64,000 nt of DNA, from the NCBI GenBank assembly GCA_964576435.1, contig CAZNUP010000001.1, positions 294,795 through 358,794 of the forward strand, in the 5' to 3' direction. The translations under genes were made by a program, and so were the position numbers. Below, piece after piece: positions 29,564 through 47,491 of the stretch (its first letter is position 1; each line of letters starts with the position of its first letter). This DNA is from an uncultured Gammaproteobacteria bacterium (GTDB lineage Bacteria > Patescibacteriota > Microgenomatia > JAMCZE01). Below the pieces are notes generated by a model that worked only from the letters and a program-made list of their open reading frames with translations, was not told where the DNA came from and ran no database searches.

Positions 29564-32035
29564 TTGATGGCTAATATAACTGTTTTACCGGTTGCCCCTC
29601 TTCGAGATGGGCCAGTTTTCCCCAATACCGACGTTCCATTGGTTTTTGGTAGAAGCAAATCTGTTTCCGCATTAAAGAGTGCTTCCGAAACAAACAGATT
29701 AATTTTTGTAGTAGCTCAAAAAGACCCTCAAGCAATTGAAAGTGATTCAGCGAATTTGCAAGAAATTGGCACAATTTGCCAAATTAAACACATCTTCCAA
29801 AGTGAGTCTGAACTCAATGTTCTCGTCTCAGGACTCTCAAGAGCAAAAGTAATCCGCTATCAATCATTGGATTCATTTTTGGTTGCCGAAGTAGAAGAAA
29901 TTCCAGACAAACTAGACGCTGATGATCCTGAGATTACAGCTCTCGTTACTCATATTAATTCTGAATTTCAAAACCTTCTTCGTCTTGGTAGAACCTTCGA
30001 TTTTTTTGTTCTTATGAAATTATCCTCAGAGCTTGGTCCAGGAGAACTCTCGAACCAATTGGCAGCTGTTTTAGATTTTACATCTTTGGATCGTCAAGAA
30101 ATTCTTGATAATCCAGACGTTAAAGTGAGGCTCAAGAAAGTTTCAGATCAAATAGCTAAGGAGCTTAAAGTCTTAGAACTAGAACGGAAGATAATTTCTT
30201 CAAGCCAGGCAAAGATGGAAAAAAACATGCGAGAAAATCTTCTTAAGGAAAGAAAGAAGGCTATTGAACACGAACTTGGTGAAATGGACGATGAAGAAAA
30301 AGAAACCGAAGAGTTAAAACAAAAAGCCAAAAAAGCAGGAATGCCAGAAGAGGTTTTGAAAAAGACTCTCAAAGAAATTAAGCGCTTGGAACAAATGAGC
30401 AGCATGAATCCAGAAGCTGGCTACATTAGAACGTATGTTGAGTGGCTCTTAGATATGCCATGGAATACAAAAAGCGAAAATTCGTCAGATATTAAAGCAG
30501 CAGAAAAGACTCTGGATGAAGATCATTATGGTTTAGAAAAAGTTAAAGAACGCATTATTGAGTATTTAGCAGTCCTTAAATTAAAGCACTCCAAATTGAT
30601 ACCGGATGCTGCTTATACAAAGTCCTCTGAAACTCTTCCAGAACCAGGAGTTAAAACCAAAAAAGAAAGTGTTCCAACAATTATCTGTTTTGTTGGACCT
30701 CCAGGTGTTGGTAAAACCAGTCTTGGAAAATCTATTGCTCGTGCTTTAAACAGAAAATTTGTCCGTATCTCTCTTGGCGGTGTCCGTGATGAAGCTGAAA
30801 TTAGAGGTCATAGAAGAACATATGTTGGCGCTTTACCAGGACGCATTATTCAAGGAATTAAACAAGCAGGAACCAACAATCCAGTATTTATGTTGGATGA
30901 AATTGATAAGTTGGGGAATGACTTTAGAGGTGATCCATCTGCCGCTCTTTTAGAAGCACTTGATCCAGAACAAAACAATGCCTTTTCTGATCATTATCTA
31001 GAAGTCCCATTTGATTTGTCAGAAGTCATCTTTATTACAACAGCAAATCTTTTAGAAACTATCCCACCAGCACTTTTGGATAGGTTAGAAATTATTGAAT
31101 TTCCAGGTTACACATTAGAGGAAAAGTTTCATATTGCTAAAAAATATCTCGTTCCAAAACAGATTGGAATCAATGGTTTAACAGCTGACCAAATAGATAT
31201 TTCAGATGACGCCTTAAGGACTATCATTTCTCGTTATACATATGAAGCAGGCGTAAGACATCTTGAACGAGAGATCGCTACAGTTCTTAGGAAGAATGCC
31301 AAGAAGGTTGCTGAAAAAACACCAAAAAATAAAATTGAAATTAAAAGTAGTGATTTGCACAAGTTCCTTGGCCCATACAAATTCACCTCTACAATTGCTG
31401 AAAGAAAAGATGAAGTAGGTCTCTCAACAGGTCTCTTTGTCACAAATGCAGGTGGAGGCATTCTCTTAATTGAAGTTGCCACTATGCCAGGAAAAGGTGG
31501 GTTAACTTTAACTGGACGGCTTGGTGACGTCATGCAAGAATCAGCAAAAGCTGCCATGTCTTATGTAAGAAGCAGATGGAAAGAACTTGGAATTGACGAG
31601 AAGTTATTCCAAAAAACTGATATTCACATTCATTTTCCAGAAGGCGCTACGCCAAAAGACGGTCCCTCAGCAGGAATTGCAATTACAATTGCCTTAGTTT
31701 CTGCCCTAACTAAAATTCCTGTCAAAAAATATGTCGGAATGACTGGTGAAGTAACCTTAAGGGGAAGAGTATTGGAAATTGGTGGACTTAAAGAAAAGGT
31801 CATTGGTGCAAAGCTTGCTGGCCTTAAAAGAATTGTTGCACCAAAATCAAATAAAAAAGATCTTGAAGAAATTCCAAAGTACATCACTAAAGATTTAGAG
31901 TTTAGTTTCGTTGACAATATGGACGAAGTTTTGGAGCTAGCTTTAGTTGAAAGACCTCAGCCTAAAGAAGCAAGATCTGGAGAGCATAAAAAAACATCTA
32001 GATCATTTGCTCGTCTAGAAATACCTGTCTCGTAA
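29564..32035 (+). CDS. lon: ATP-dependent protease Lon (full length: LON N-domain, AAA+, S16 protease)
   Basis: 823 aa; Walker A GPPGVGKTSLGKS, protease active-site region PKDGPSAGIAITIALVSALT. Confidence 0.95.
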   Translation: MMANITVLPVAPLRDGPVFPNTDVPLVFGRSKSVSALKSASETNRLIFVVAQKDPQAIESDSANLQEIGTICQIKHIFQSESELNVLVSGLSRAKVIRYQSLDSFLVAEVEEIPDKLDADDPEITALVTHINSEFQNLLRLGRTFDFFVLMKLSSELGPGELSNQLAAVLDFTSLDRQEILDNPDVKVRLKKVSDQIAKELKVLELERKIISSSQAKMEKNMRENLLKERKKAIEHELGEMDDEEKETEELKQKAKKAGMPEEVLKKTLKEIKRLEQMSSMNPEAGYIRTYVEWLLDMPWNTKSENSSDIKAAEKTLDEDHYGLEKVKERIIEYLAVLKLKHSKLIPDAAYTKSSETLPEPGVKTKKESVPTIICFVGPPGVGKTSLGKSIARALNRKFVRISLGGVRDEAEIRGHRRTYVGALPGRIIQGIKQAGTNNPVFMLDEIDKLGNDFRGDPSAALLEALDPEQNNAFSDHYLEVPFDLSEVIFITTANLLETIPPALLDRLEIIEFPGYTLEEKFHIAKKYLVPKQIGINGLTADQIDISDDALRTIISRYTYEAGVRHLEREIATVLRKNAKKVAEKTPKNKIEIKSSDLHKFLGPYKFTSTIAERKDEVGLSTGLFVTNAGGGILLIEVATMPGKGGLTLTGRLGDVMQESAKAAMSYVRSRWKELGIDEKLFQKTDIHIHFPEGATPKDGPSAGIAITIALVSALTKIPVKKYVGMTGEVTLRGRVLEIGGLKEKVIGAKLAGLKRIVAPKSNKKDLEEIPKYITKDLEFSFVDNMDEVLELALVERPQPKEARSGEHKKTSRSFARLEIPVS

Positions 32036-32938
32036 TATTTCCCAAATAGCTTCTCGCTGGCAAACTCTTTTTAGTTCATTTATGTCACTTGCACTAAGTT
32101 CTGTGCTTTTATTTGTTTTTGAAAACATCACACTATTTTCATCTTTAACGTGATTAATCCCTAACGAGTGTCCAAATTCATGAGCCAGTGTGTGTATAAT
32201 TTCCGGTTTATCAATATAAAAATAAATTGAGATGGTGTTATTTGGACCATCAAAGAGTCCTTCTTCTGGTCGGAGCTTAAGAGTAGTGTTGAATTCAGAA
32301 ACTGTGCTGTTATAATTTTTCACTTCGTCATTAAATTCACCAGCTGATGTGTTAAGTTTGTCTGCCTCGGCATTAAGTGCAGCTGCTTCACTTTCCAGAC
32401 TCTTTTGTTCAGAAAGTAATTTATTGTAGTCTTCTTCAGGGGCTCCCCCTCGGTCATTCCAATATTTTACTTTGTCATTGAAATCTGCCATTTTCTTATT
32501 AAAGGTCACTGTCTTTTGTTTATGACTTTCAATGCTTGGTTTAAGCTGTCCTTCGGATTGCGTTATTTTTTCTGAAAGCTGACCAATTTGGTTAGTTAGT
32601 TGCTGTCTTTCATCAAATACTAAATTAACTTTAAGTTTGCCTTCTGGGTTGTTTGTAAAAATTTCTTCACCATATGCCTTATTCCAAATATTAGCTCCAG
32701 ATAAAGTAAATGCTTCAAATTCTTCTTTGCTAATTCCAAATTTGCTATCAACCTTATCAATTTGAAAGCTAATTGGTTGGTCACAAAATGAGGGGTACAA
32801 GGTTCTATAAACTTTTGTCTGAAGTTCCTTATTTCTTAAATAATAAAAAGCACCTCCAGCAAGGAGGGCGATAATTATTATCAAGATAGCTAAGCTAAAA
32901 AAGACTCGTTTGCTTGGATGGGTCATAGTTTGTGTCAT
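32015..32938 (-). CDS. membrane-anchored zinc metalloprotease (metzincin, HExxHxxGxxH) with a coiled-coil segment
   Basis: N-terminal TM helix; C-terminal HEFGHSLGINH. Start placed at the Met at 32938 because the ORF-track start overlaps the upstream gene by 90 nt. Confidence 0.65.
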   Translation of the reverse strand: MTQTMTHPSKRVFFSLAILIIIIALLAGGAFYYLRNKELQTKVYRTLYPSFCDQPISFQIDKVDSKFGISKEEFEAFTLSGANIWNKAYGEEIFTNNPEGKLKVNLVFDERQQLTNQIGQLSEKITQSEGQLKPSIESHKQKTVTFNKKMADFNDKVKYWNDRGGAPEEDYNKLLSEQKSLESEAAALNAEADKLNTSAGEFNDEVKNYNSTVSEFNTTLKLRPEEGLFDGPNNTISIYFYIDKPEIIHTLAHEFGHSLGINHVKDENSVMFSKTNKSTELSASDINELKRVCQREAIWEILRDRYF

Positions 32939-47313: not shown

Positions 47314-47491
47314 GTTTATTTTGATGGTCTGAAATAAATTTCTTTAGATCTTTTTGATCGATTCGATAAGATCTTCCAAGTTTCATTGCAGGGAGTTCTC
47401 CGGAGCGGATGTAGTCGTAAACAGTAAGGAGGTTGAGACGCAAAATTTTCGAGACTTCTTTAGGCGTTAAAAATGTACTAATGCCAAACAT
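47300..47491 (-). CDS. small excisionase/MerR-type helix-turn-helix DNA-binding protein (HTH_17), first gene of the glycan operon
   Basis: 63 aa; …LTPKEVSKILRLNLLTVYDYIRSGELPAMKLGRSYRIDQKDLKKFI…. Confidence 0.7.
   Translation of the reverse strand: MFGISTFLTPKEVSKILRLNLLTVYDYIRSGELPAMKLGRSYRIDQKDLKKFISDHQNKHAQA

Follow-up and report, generated by a model that had tools for sequence, protein, structure and literature searches.

One of the closest described systems to the locus considered here is the Pgf machinery of Streptococcus mutans (PgfS, PgfM1, PgfE and PgfM2), together with GtrB/PgtC2 of Streptococcus pyogenes and Streptococcus pneumoniae. The pgf cluster comprises a GT-A-type glycosyltransferase (GT), PgfS, and two GT-C enzymes, along with wall-anchored adhesins (Cnm, CnaB, CbpA and WapA); the Ser/Thr-rich regions of these proteins are O-glycosylated extracellularly (PMC5856776, PMC12041528). 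Streptococcal GtrB/PgtC2 glycosylates Ser/Thr-rich disordered regions generally (PMC12041528). In Actinomyces oris, the GspA-LcpA-SrtA system anchors a glycopolymer-bearing sortase substrate, GspA, to peptidoglycan, and the substrate gene adjoins a gene for a glycosylation enzyme (PMC6381275). Here, we analyzed a 64,000-nucleotide stretch of contig CAZNUP010000001.1 (hereafter, the window) that carries a locus of related logic at positions 33525-47313 of the minus strand. In our reading, which we hold at about even confidence, this is the local version of an envelope locus found throughout Microgenomates, and its product would be a glycosylated, peptidoglycan-anchored surface protein.

The core genes of the locus, all on the minus strand, encode a giant multidomain glycosyltransferase of 1523 amino acids (aa) with two GT2 domains and one GT4 domain assigned by Pfam (42742-47313); two polytopic GT-C-like membrane proteins, TMb (501 aa, 37482-38987) and TMa (519 aa, 35936-37495); a membrane-anchored extracytoplasmic glycosidase or transglycosylase of glycoside hydrolase (GH) clan GH-A, p419 (34680-35939); a sortase substrate of 196 aa, SUB (34061-34651); and a membrane-anchored sortase dedicated to SUB (33525-34064). 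As the comparisons below establish, the sortase/LAxTG pair, a GtrB-like synthase, two GT-C-like enzymes and the extracytoplasmic GH-A enzyme form a conserved functional neighborhood, and the catalytic or conserved residues of the core proteins are predicted to face outward. The logic of the locus is a variant of Gram-positive surface-glycoprotein systems, made of unannotated families (TMa, TMb and p419) and a SUB domain without structural precedent. To our knowledge, experiments have revealed next to nothing about the cell envelope of Microgenomates and of most other bacteria of the Candidate Phyla Radiation (CPR), and our literature searches returned no described sortase substrate or linked glycan machinery for CPR bacteria.

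Comparison with Described Systems

Like Pgf, the present locus brings together in one cluster a polyprenyl-phosphate sugar synthase of family GT2, two GT-C(-like) transferases and a sortase-anchored, Ser-rich protein. Unlike their counterparts in Pgf, the GT-C-like proteins do not belong to the YfhO family and are distantly related to PMT_2/PMT, and the synthase is one domain of the 1523-aa fusion, which further contains a BcsA-like GT2 domain, a region of 12 transmembrane (TM) helices and a GT4 domain. The GH-A enzyme and the dedicated sortase likewise set the present module apart, as does the substrate itself, which is a tiny protein with a novel fold rather than a collagen-binding adhesin and carries LAxTG in place of LPxTG. 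The A. oris system is similar in that its glycopolymer is attached to a sortase substrate, yet it relies on a LytR-CpsA-Psr (LCP) phosphotransferase and a polyprenyl-pyrophosphate donor, whereas GT-C-like enzymes occupy that place here. The motif LAxTG is shared with actinobacterial class E systems (PMC5148588), although the present sortase fails the class E model.

Resemblance also extends to the O-mannosylation of proteins by Ppm1/DPMS and Pmt (GT39) in actinobacteria and eukaryotes, in which a DPMS-like GT2 enzyme is combined with a PMT-related GT-C enzyme and which targets exported proteins at Ser/Thr-rich regions; the GT-C-like pair has PMT/PMT_2 as its nearest Pfam families and DPMS is the nearest solved GT2 structure to the synthase domain. 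Unlike Pmt, however, TMa and TMb lie below the PMT/PMT_2 thresholds and have no detectable similarity to the solved Pmt1/2, and the gene set is much larger. The GtrA/GtrB/GtrC, CsbB/YfhO and GacI-L systems similarly pair a GtrB-like GT2 enzyme with a GT-C enzyme that uses a lipid-linked donor outside the membrane (PMC11127046, PMC5836110), while Bcs, Pga and Psl share a BcsA/PgaC-like GT2 enzyme with a glycoside hydrolase and a deacetylase partner. In contrast to this last group, no GtrA-type flippase, no PilZ or cyclic di-GMP module and no outer-membrane components were found in the present locus, and a tight tie to a sortase/substrate pair is foreign to that group.

Conservation of the Locus in Microgenomates

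A scan with the SUB profile, covering one genome per species and up to 10 kb on each side, gave 80 loci. These were searched for homologs of the window proteins with tblastn, and all their open reading frames (ORFs) were grouped by unsupervised clustering. The named relatives all belong to the Microgenomates branch of CPR/Patescibacteria, namely to Levy-, Roizman-, Woese-, Davies-, Ames-, Gottesman- and Chisholmbacteria. Many third-party records of metagenome-assembled genomes with the locus (L006-L080) are titled 'uncultured Gammaproteobacteria', 'Pseudomonadales', 'Weeksellaceae' or 'Saccharibacteria' and look like mislabeled bins. Record titles of the type 'uncultured Gammaproteobacteria/Pseudomonadales' were rejected as taxonomic evidence; the gene content of these loci and the records with names both point to Microgenomates.

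The sortase gene is present in 77/80 loci and immediately follows SUB in 76/80, and p419 is the immediate upstream neighbor of SUB in 54/80; TMa, p419 and SUB are contiguous in 36 loci. Overall, the core genes were each found in 40-77 of the 80 loci. In 44 loci, each of the two flanks is longer than 5.2 kb. Of these, 35 have TMa, 33 have TMb, 33 have p419 and 30 have giant-GT/GT4 genes, and 41 carry one or more of TMa, TMb and the giant GT. Ten loci, mainly from Roizmanbacteria, show an altered order in which SUB and the sortase gene are followed by the giant gene, further GTs and, at the far end, TMb. The linkage thus outlasts rearrangement, since these ten loci keep the genes together in the order SUB-sortase-giant.

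The other genes of the window served as controls. Homologs of the exonuclease, the metzincin, Lon and two plus-strand genes that lie beyond the gene for a helix-turn-helix (HTH) protein were each found in 0/80 loci, and homologs of the HTH protein in 2/80; because other window neighbors score 0/80, background synteny at this depth is low. The conserved core is 33525-47313, with the exonuclease, metzincin and HTH genes as bystanders. An initial annotation of the window, made from the sequence alone, had named joint conservation of sortase, substrate and GT-C genes as a check on its proposal, and these genes, along with p419 and the giant GT gene, do remain linked in Levy-, Roizman-, Woese-, Davies-, Ames- and Gottesmanbacteria, also where their order has changed. 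Its further claim of a self-contained eleven-gene system could not be upheld: given the control counts, the whole run as one functional unit is ruled out, and two fusion genes within it are variable accessories.

For the reciprocal test, metagenome contigs were anchored on p419, which gave 51 loci whose downstream flank measures at least 1.5 kb and 36 with enough upstream sequence. SUB was found in 40/51 and the sortase in 36/51 of these loci, and TMa and TMb each in 32/36. One SUB-less locus (L126:12388-14023) has a 360-aa LAATG protein with an fn3 domain in the position of SUB, followed by a sortase gene; the G/S/T/A-rich stalk of this protein is similar to that of SUB. In addition, 21 loci of the SUB-anchored set carry, 1-4 kb downstream of the sortase gene, a gene for a CAP/SCP-domain membrane protein with an S/T/P-rich linker (cluster c7), followed by one for an RmlA-like nucleotidyltransferase (c8; e.g., L035:7313-8224). 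The CAP/SCP protein may be another client of O-glycosylation.

The Sortase Substrate and Its Sortase

SUB begins with a signal peptide. A domain of about 110 aa, in which four Cys residues are invariant, is followed by a disordered Ser/Gly stalk, the motif LAATG, a TM helix and an RNK tail. As read from the sequence, the Ser/Gly-rich stalk QNGGGSSGGGSSSSNGGSSSSNSNSDPSAVLG (34154-34249, minus strand) stands directly before LAATG (34139-34153, minus strand), and the C-terminal sorting signal is formed by LAATG, NLQIAAVLFALGVLSLSTGLII and RNK. About 240 relatives are detectable, all unannotated and about 200 aa long, and this layout recurs throughout alignments of 26 and of 120 members. LAxTG, preceded by LG, occurs in 119 of the 120 aligned members; the median number of K/R among the final 8 residues is 3. 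The stalks of these 119 relatives have a median length of 33 aa, are composed of 31% Ser and 28% Gly and contain a median of 12 Ser+Thr; nearly all are disordered and Ser/Gly-rich. A Ser-rich composition is found both in SUB genes linked to glycan genes and in unlinked ones. The part of SUB that lies at the membrane surface is thus a disordered, Ser-rich segment, and the initial annotation, which had described an LAATG substrate with a Ser/Gly-rich stalk directly before the sorting signal, is borne out here by the conservation of the stalk's composition and disorder.

The four-Cys domain contains invariant Trp/Gly-rich motifs (GIQTNWW, GW and WGL). It matched no solved structure, and a sequence search of the PDB with the SUB profile gave nothing usable. 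A known lectin or carbohydrate-binding module (CBM) fold was considered for SUB and ruled out, as the domain has no structural similarity to either.

The sortase matches PF04203 (E 2e-19) and scores 40.3 bits against TIGR01076, just above the cut-off of 39.35. Its His-Cys-Arg triad (H104, C163 within TVYTC, and R171) is invariant in 78 orthologs. All class-specific models fail: class E was rejected at 22.6 bits for NF033747 against a cut-off of 160, and class F, although it gave the best class model, reached 41.9 against a cut-off of 166. By these profile scores, the enzyme is an unclassified CPR sortase that has in common with class E only the preference for LAxTG. Sortase has been reported to be near-ubiquitous in Microgenomates (PMC6744442). 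Four loci (L018, L029, L040 and L076) encode a second sortase paralog, a few kb further downstream than the one associated with SUB.

GT-C-like Membrane Proteins

TMa and TMb themselves have no Pfam match at E 0.01, and the only match of TMb to PMT_2 has an E value of 6.6. The sole direct match for the pair is that of TMb to the NCBIfam model of the LA_3751/3752 putative glycosyltransferase (E 6e-12), which remains under the cut-off. Members of the GT-C superfamily are defined by 8-13 TM helices and by conserved acidic residues in the loop after TM1 (PMC5836110), and both proteins display these features, with the loop on the extracytoplasmic side. By hydropathy, TMa has at least 10 TM segments and TMb at least 9. 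In the TMa family alignment, the residues Y34, D36, S39, H40 and R46, about 10 residues after TM1, are invariant and, by the positive-inside rule, are placed on the outer face; in TMb, an invariant P70-D71 and a near-invariant E38 lie in the long first outside loop. The two families are distant paralogs (hhalign, 94%, E 1e-7).

A transitive connection to known families is provided by divergent relatives. The full-length TMa homologs of L010 and L051 (38-40% identity, 319-343 bits) pass Pfam cut-offs, the former for PMT_2 (33.0 against 26.1 bits) and the latter for PMT_2 (39.8 bits) as well as PMT (38.3 against 22.7 bits). Similarly, PMT_2 is matched by 4 of 24 TMb-family members, with a best E value of 2.6e-8. 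On the basis of the acidic residues in loop 1, the transitive PMT_2/PMT homology via L010 and L051 and the hhalign link, TMa and TMb are tentatively assigned to the GT-C superfamily as distant relatives of PMT/PMT_2, their nearest families. This grouping covers protein O-mannosyltransferases as well as ArnT-like modifiers of lipids or glycans. A YfhO-type identity was ruled out, with no YfhO match in 25 TMa-family or 24 TMb-family members at E values up to 10. Sequence searches of the PDB with the TMa profile and with single divergent TMa homologs recovered no GT-C structure and nothing similar to the solved Pmt1/2, and neither PMT_4TMC nor MIR domains were found in the pair.

TMa is the best conserved gene of the locus, with a median identity of 61%, compared with 49% for p419, 44% for SUB, 42% for the sortase and 32% for the fast-evolving TMb. 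It has about 2000 relatives; among the 120 matches listed, none carries a Pfam domain and nearly all are called hypothetical.

The GH-A-like Protein p419

The protein p419 has the (beta/alpha)8 barrel fold of clan GH-A, followed at the C-terminus by a CarboxypepD_reg-like beta-sandwich. An invariant E261 lies within strand 7 (residues 256-262, LGEYG), and invariant E162/E164 lie after strand 4; these are candidates for the two catalytic Glu residues that clan GH-A enzymes carry at the end of strand 7 and after strand 4. No GH family of Pfam or NCBIfam matches the catalytic part, and the family profile found no sequence match in the PDB. About 2300 relatives were detected, of which the 120 closest listed carry only Pfam domains of the CarboxypepD_reg type.

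Genetically, p419 is paired with TMa, as seen from gene overlap, fusions and duplications of the pair as a unit. The two genes overlap by 4 nucleotides (nt) in the window. In two relatives, they are fused in a single ORF, namely at L019:6940-9891 (983 aa) and L052:7281-9947 (888 aa). In L010 and L051, the TMa-p419 pair is tandemly duplicated as a unit.

The Giant Glycosyltransferase and Variable Sugar Genes

The first GT2 domain of the giant protein (residues 3-208; 46690-47307, minus strand) is of the polyprenyl-phosphate sugar synthase type (DPMS/GtrB/ArnC/PgfS-like). Its matches to PDB sequences include Pyrococcus DPMS (5mlz, E 1.2e-15), Synechocystis GtrB (sll0501, E 4e-12) and ArnC (E 1.4e-9), and its best match among NCBIfam GT2 models is PgfS (E 1.2e-19), under the equivalog cut-off. 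The second GT2 domain (residues 338-679; 45277-46302, minus strand), flanked by TM helices, is of the membrane-embedded processive synthase type (BcsA/PgaC-like), with matches to BcsA (4hg6/4p00, E 2e-8) and to the NCBIfam models PgaC_IcaA (E 1.3e-28) and CelA (E 3.7e-19), both under cut-off. It is followed by a region with about 12 TM helices predicted from hydropathy (residues ~690-1170; 43804-45246, minus strand), which matches no Pfam or NCBIfam family and may, as a candidate, be a flippase or exporter module for lipid-linked sugars. The C-terminal GT4 domain of GT-B fold (residues 1177-1520; 42754-43785, minus strand) matches Glycos_transf_1 (E 9e-46) and Glyco_transf_4 in Pfam and TarM, BshA, MshA and PimA/B in the PDB. 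Full-length orthologs of 1537-1570 aa, about 44% identical, occur in at least 9 loci.

Two further fusion genes lie between the giant gene and TMb on the minus strand, and Pfam assigns their domains. One encodes a GT2+GT4 glycosyltransferase that has no TM helix and is cytoplasmic/soluble (40773-42749), and the other a PIG-L deacetylase joined to a GNAT (Acetyltransf_6) domain (38984-40825). Both are variable accessories: the former has a full-length match in 1 locus only, with separate GT2 (cluster c5, 41 loci) and GT4 genes in relatives, and the latter has partial homologs in 8/80 loci. The exact fusions are thus nearly exclusive to the present genome, while equivalent functions recur as separate or differently fused genes. 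Deacetylase fusion partners change, from PIG-L+GNAT in the window to PIG-L with an APH-like kinase in L059:3361-5580 and a kinase-like domain with CE4 in L076:3816-5507, and a free APH/choline-kinase-like gene (cluster c9) is present in 17 loci. Other variable accessories of relatives include RmlA, RmlC, an epimerase, a DRL-type oxidoreductase, a DegT aminotransferase, an LbH acetyltransferase, GT4s and an apiosidase-like GH. This gene set recalls the variable portion of O-antigen, capsule or S-layer-glycan loci that is devoted to sugar tailoring.

Pfam and NCBIfam searches found no GtrA-type flippase among the eleven proteins of the minus-strand run, and a weak Polysacc_synt (Wzx-like) protein occurs in L009 only. 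No LCP domain was found among the eleven proteins or in the recurrent accessory clusters that were examined. With respect to the initial annotation, the GtrB-like GT2 that it had invoked is confirmed by the DPMS/GtrB/ArnC/PgfS matches of the N-terminal domain of the giant protein, and Pfam agrees with its calls for the PIG-L+GNAT and GT2/GT4 fusions, the sortase, the exonuclease and the metzincin. Its two PMT/ArnT-like GT-C glycosyltransferases hold insofar as PMT_2/PMT are the nearest families via homologs, although neither protein has a Pfam match of its own. Likewise, the three-component logic that it had suggested retains the GT2 and the GT-C-like pair but not a dedicated GtrA-type flippase.

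Transcription of the Locus

A sigma-70-type promoter-like site (34661-34688, minus strand) is located in the 28-nt gap before SUB. This site, TTGACA-N16-TATAAT, is the only perfect 12/12 match in the region, and its -10 box ends 9 nt before the SUB ATG, which implies a near-leaderless SUB transcript if the predicted promoter is used. Within 70 nt upstream of SUB, matches of at least 10/12 occur in 41/80 loci and of at least 11/12 in 23/80, compared with only 1-6 loci of the 45-81 scanned when the equal test was applied upstream of the sortase gene, p419, TMa or TMb. An 11/12 site also lies upstream of the HTH gene. A scan for terminators gave 16, which is not above the background of 10.8 +/- 3.8 expected. 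The cluster had been annotated as a 15-kb single operon, which the present data do not show; a single operon was rejected on the basis of the conserved internal promoter-like site. Because this site lies directly upstream of SUB, the cluster is more aptly viewed as two units, one for the enzymes and another, with a boost of its own, for SUB and the sortase.

Proposed Pathway and Alternative Readings

In the reading that we favor, the first GT2 domain of the giant protein would load a sugar onto polyprenyl phosphate at the cytoplasmic face of the membrane, an activity suggested by its family, and the other GT2 and GT4 domains, together with nucleotide-sugar, deacetylase and acyl-transfer genes, would assemble the glycan or make it more diverse. 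The lipid-linked sugar or glycan would then be moved outward, perhaps via the 12-TM region of the giant. SUB would be exported by Sec, would form two disulfides from its four invariant Cys residues and would be tethered by its C-terminal helix, with the 30-residue disordered Ser/Gly stalk near the membrane. By analogy with PgfM1/PgtC2 and Pmt, TMa and TMb would transfer the sugar of the lipid donor to Ser/Thr residues of the stalk, for which the role of glycan acceptor is plausible, and p419 would trim or transglycosylate the glycan. Finally, the sortase would cut LAATG between T and G and join the glycoprotein to peptidoglycan, a reaction predicted from the motif and the catalytic triad, both of which are present. 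A strong promoter of its own would fit SUB as an abundant structural product that is needed in larger amounts than its enzymes.

A conserved and probably highly expressed substrate is tied genetically to three unannotated, strongly conserved families, TMa, TMb and the GH-A protein, which offers a concrete model of a surface layer made of glycoprotein or proteoglycan. Host attachment or cell protection could be roles of this layer. If the model is true, extracytoplasmic protein glycosylation by GT-C enzymes, known in streptococci and actinobacteria, extends to CPR, and the locus supplies marker genes and antigens for the detection or enrichment of Microgenomates.

Several observations weigh against this reading. 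The glycan on SUB, the GT-C fold of TMa/TMb and the family of the flippase are all putative. Ser/Gly-rich, wall-spanning spacers are common among sortase substrates, glycosylated or not. The SUB orthologs of L071 and L021 have stalks that are not Ser-rich, poly-Asp in the former and Gly/Asp-rich in the latter; since these stalks are of the Asp type, Ser-richness is not obligatory for the SUB family. About nine SUB-sortase pairs are located away from any glycan gene and, except for these two, still have Ser-rich stalks. Conversely, ten of the 11 SUB-less loci in the p419-anchored set retain TMb-TMa-p419 with unrelated genes downstream. TMa (61%) is far more conserved than SUB (44%), which hints at an acceptor more universal than SUB. 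Finally, the gene content, with a BcsA/PgaC-like domain, a GH-A partner, deacetylases and variable genes for Rml enzymes, an epimerase and an aminotransferase, is typical of polysaccharide loci.

These last points lead to a serious, though less probable, alternative, namely that the GTs, the GT-C pair and the GH-A enzyme make or decorate a secondary cell-wall polysaccharide or an exopolysaccharide. The GT-C enzymes would then add sugars from polyprenyl-phosphate donors to a glycan, as do GtrC, YfhO, GacL and Emb/Aft, and SUB and its sortase would be co-located as, for example, a glycan-binding or organizing protein rather than as the acceptor. Three-component systems mostly modify glycans (PMC11127046, PMC5836110), and the synthase domain, the CE4/PIG-L deacetylases, the variable RmlA/RmlC, epimerase, aminotransferase and acetyltransferase genes and the absence of an adjoining SUB in ~20% of p419-anchored loci all fit this picture, as does the very high conservation of TMa, which suggests a non-protein acceptor. 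The SUB domain is also rich in Trp (GIQTNWW, GW, WGL), like many CBMs, although it has no structural similarity to a known CBM or lectin. Loci for protein glycosylation of S-layers or adhesins, however, resemble polysaccharide loci, and gene content therefore does not discriminate between the two; moreover, the linkage to SUB and its sortase holds through changed gene order and across deep lineages, which is hard to explain without a functional tie. In a more novel but unlikely reading, SUB would be a proteoglycan-type primer and anchor, on whose Ser-rich stalk the BcsA-like/GT4/GT-C machinery directly builds a wall glycopolymer that is shaped by the GH-A enzyme. The sortase would then take the part of an LCP ligase and fix to peptidoglycan what would be the main wall glycopolymer of Microgenomates. 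In that case, the novel-fold four-Cys domain would be a recognition handle for the GT-C/GH pair. If true, it would represent a new route by which secondary wall polymers are attached, and a major uncultured radiation would have an envelope structure that defines the lineage.

Another unlikely explanation is general O-glycosylation, in which TMa and TMb act on Ser/Thr-rich disordered regions of many exported proteins, in the manner of streptococcal GtrB/PgtC2 and Pgf and of actinobacterial Pmt, and SUB is one abundant client nearby rather than a dedicated substrate. Streptococcal GT-C systems do act on many such regions (PMC12041528); S/T/P-rich linkers are present in the CAP-domain protein (c7, 21 loci) and in the window ORF 47641-48150; some loci carry the module without SUB; and, in L126, the place of SUB is taken by another LAATG protein whose stalk is similar. 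Nevertheless, the tight and nearly invariant adjacency of p419, SUB and the sortase gene indicates a privileged relation, and the large, variable set of glycan genes exceeds the needs of single-sugar O-glycosylation. It is very improbable that the genes are neighbors merely by descent, without functional coupling, in small, gene-dense and slowly rearranging genomes. CPR genomes do have long co-directional gene runs, and three of the eleven genes of the present run are unrelated bystanders; yet the other window neighbors are at 0/80, which places background synteny low, the linkage is kept in two gene orders, and TMa and p419 undergo fusion and duplication as a pair.

The Gene Run and Its Neighbors

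The core lies within a run of 11 consecutive minus-strand ORFs (32015-47491; G+C ~35%), which is flanked by strand switches to Lon (29564-32035, plus strand) on one side and to a plus-strand gene starting at 47641 on the other. All ORFs of the initially annotated run are present, and nearly all of its domain calls hold. From the HTH to the metzincin gene, the longest ORFs are joined by overlaps of 14, 8, 53, 4, 14 and 4 nt, a gap of 28 nt, an overlap of 4 nt, a gap of 21 nt and an overlap of 92 nt; the final overlap, between the exonuclease and metzincin genes, amounts to 44-92 nt, depending on the start chosen for the latter. Exact copies of the proteins are found in an NCBI contig of 709,729 bp and in a Logan assembly.

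Three genes of the run, all on the minus strand, are neighbors outside the conserved system. At the upstream end, a 63-aa DNA-binding protein of the HTH_17/excisionase family (47300-47491) is identified by Pfam and TIGR01764. At the downstream end are an RNase H-like (PolB-exo-type) 3'-5' exonuclease (32895-33503; RNase_H_2, E 7e-14) and a membrane-anchored metzincin with a coiled-coil region (32015-32986; Peptidase_M10, E 2.4e-7), whose HExxHxxGxxH motif reads HEFGHSLGINH. Elsewhere in the window, positions 19380-25999 of the plus strand encode six ABC2_membrane_6 permease paralogs in three adjacent pairs (19380-20963, 20985-22568 and 24426-25999), between which lie genes for a single ABC ATPase (22607-23599) and a SAM methyltransferase (23599-24441).

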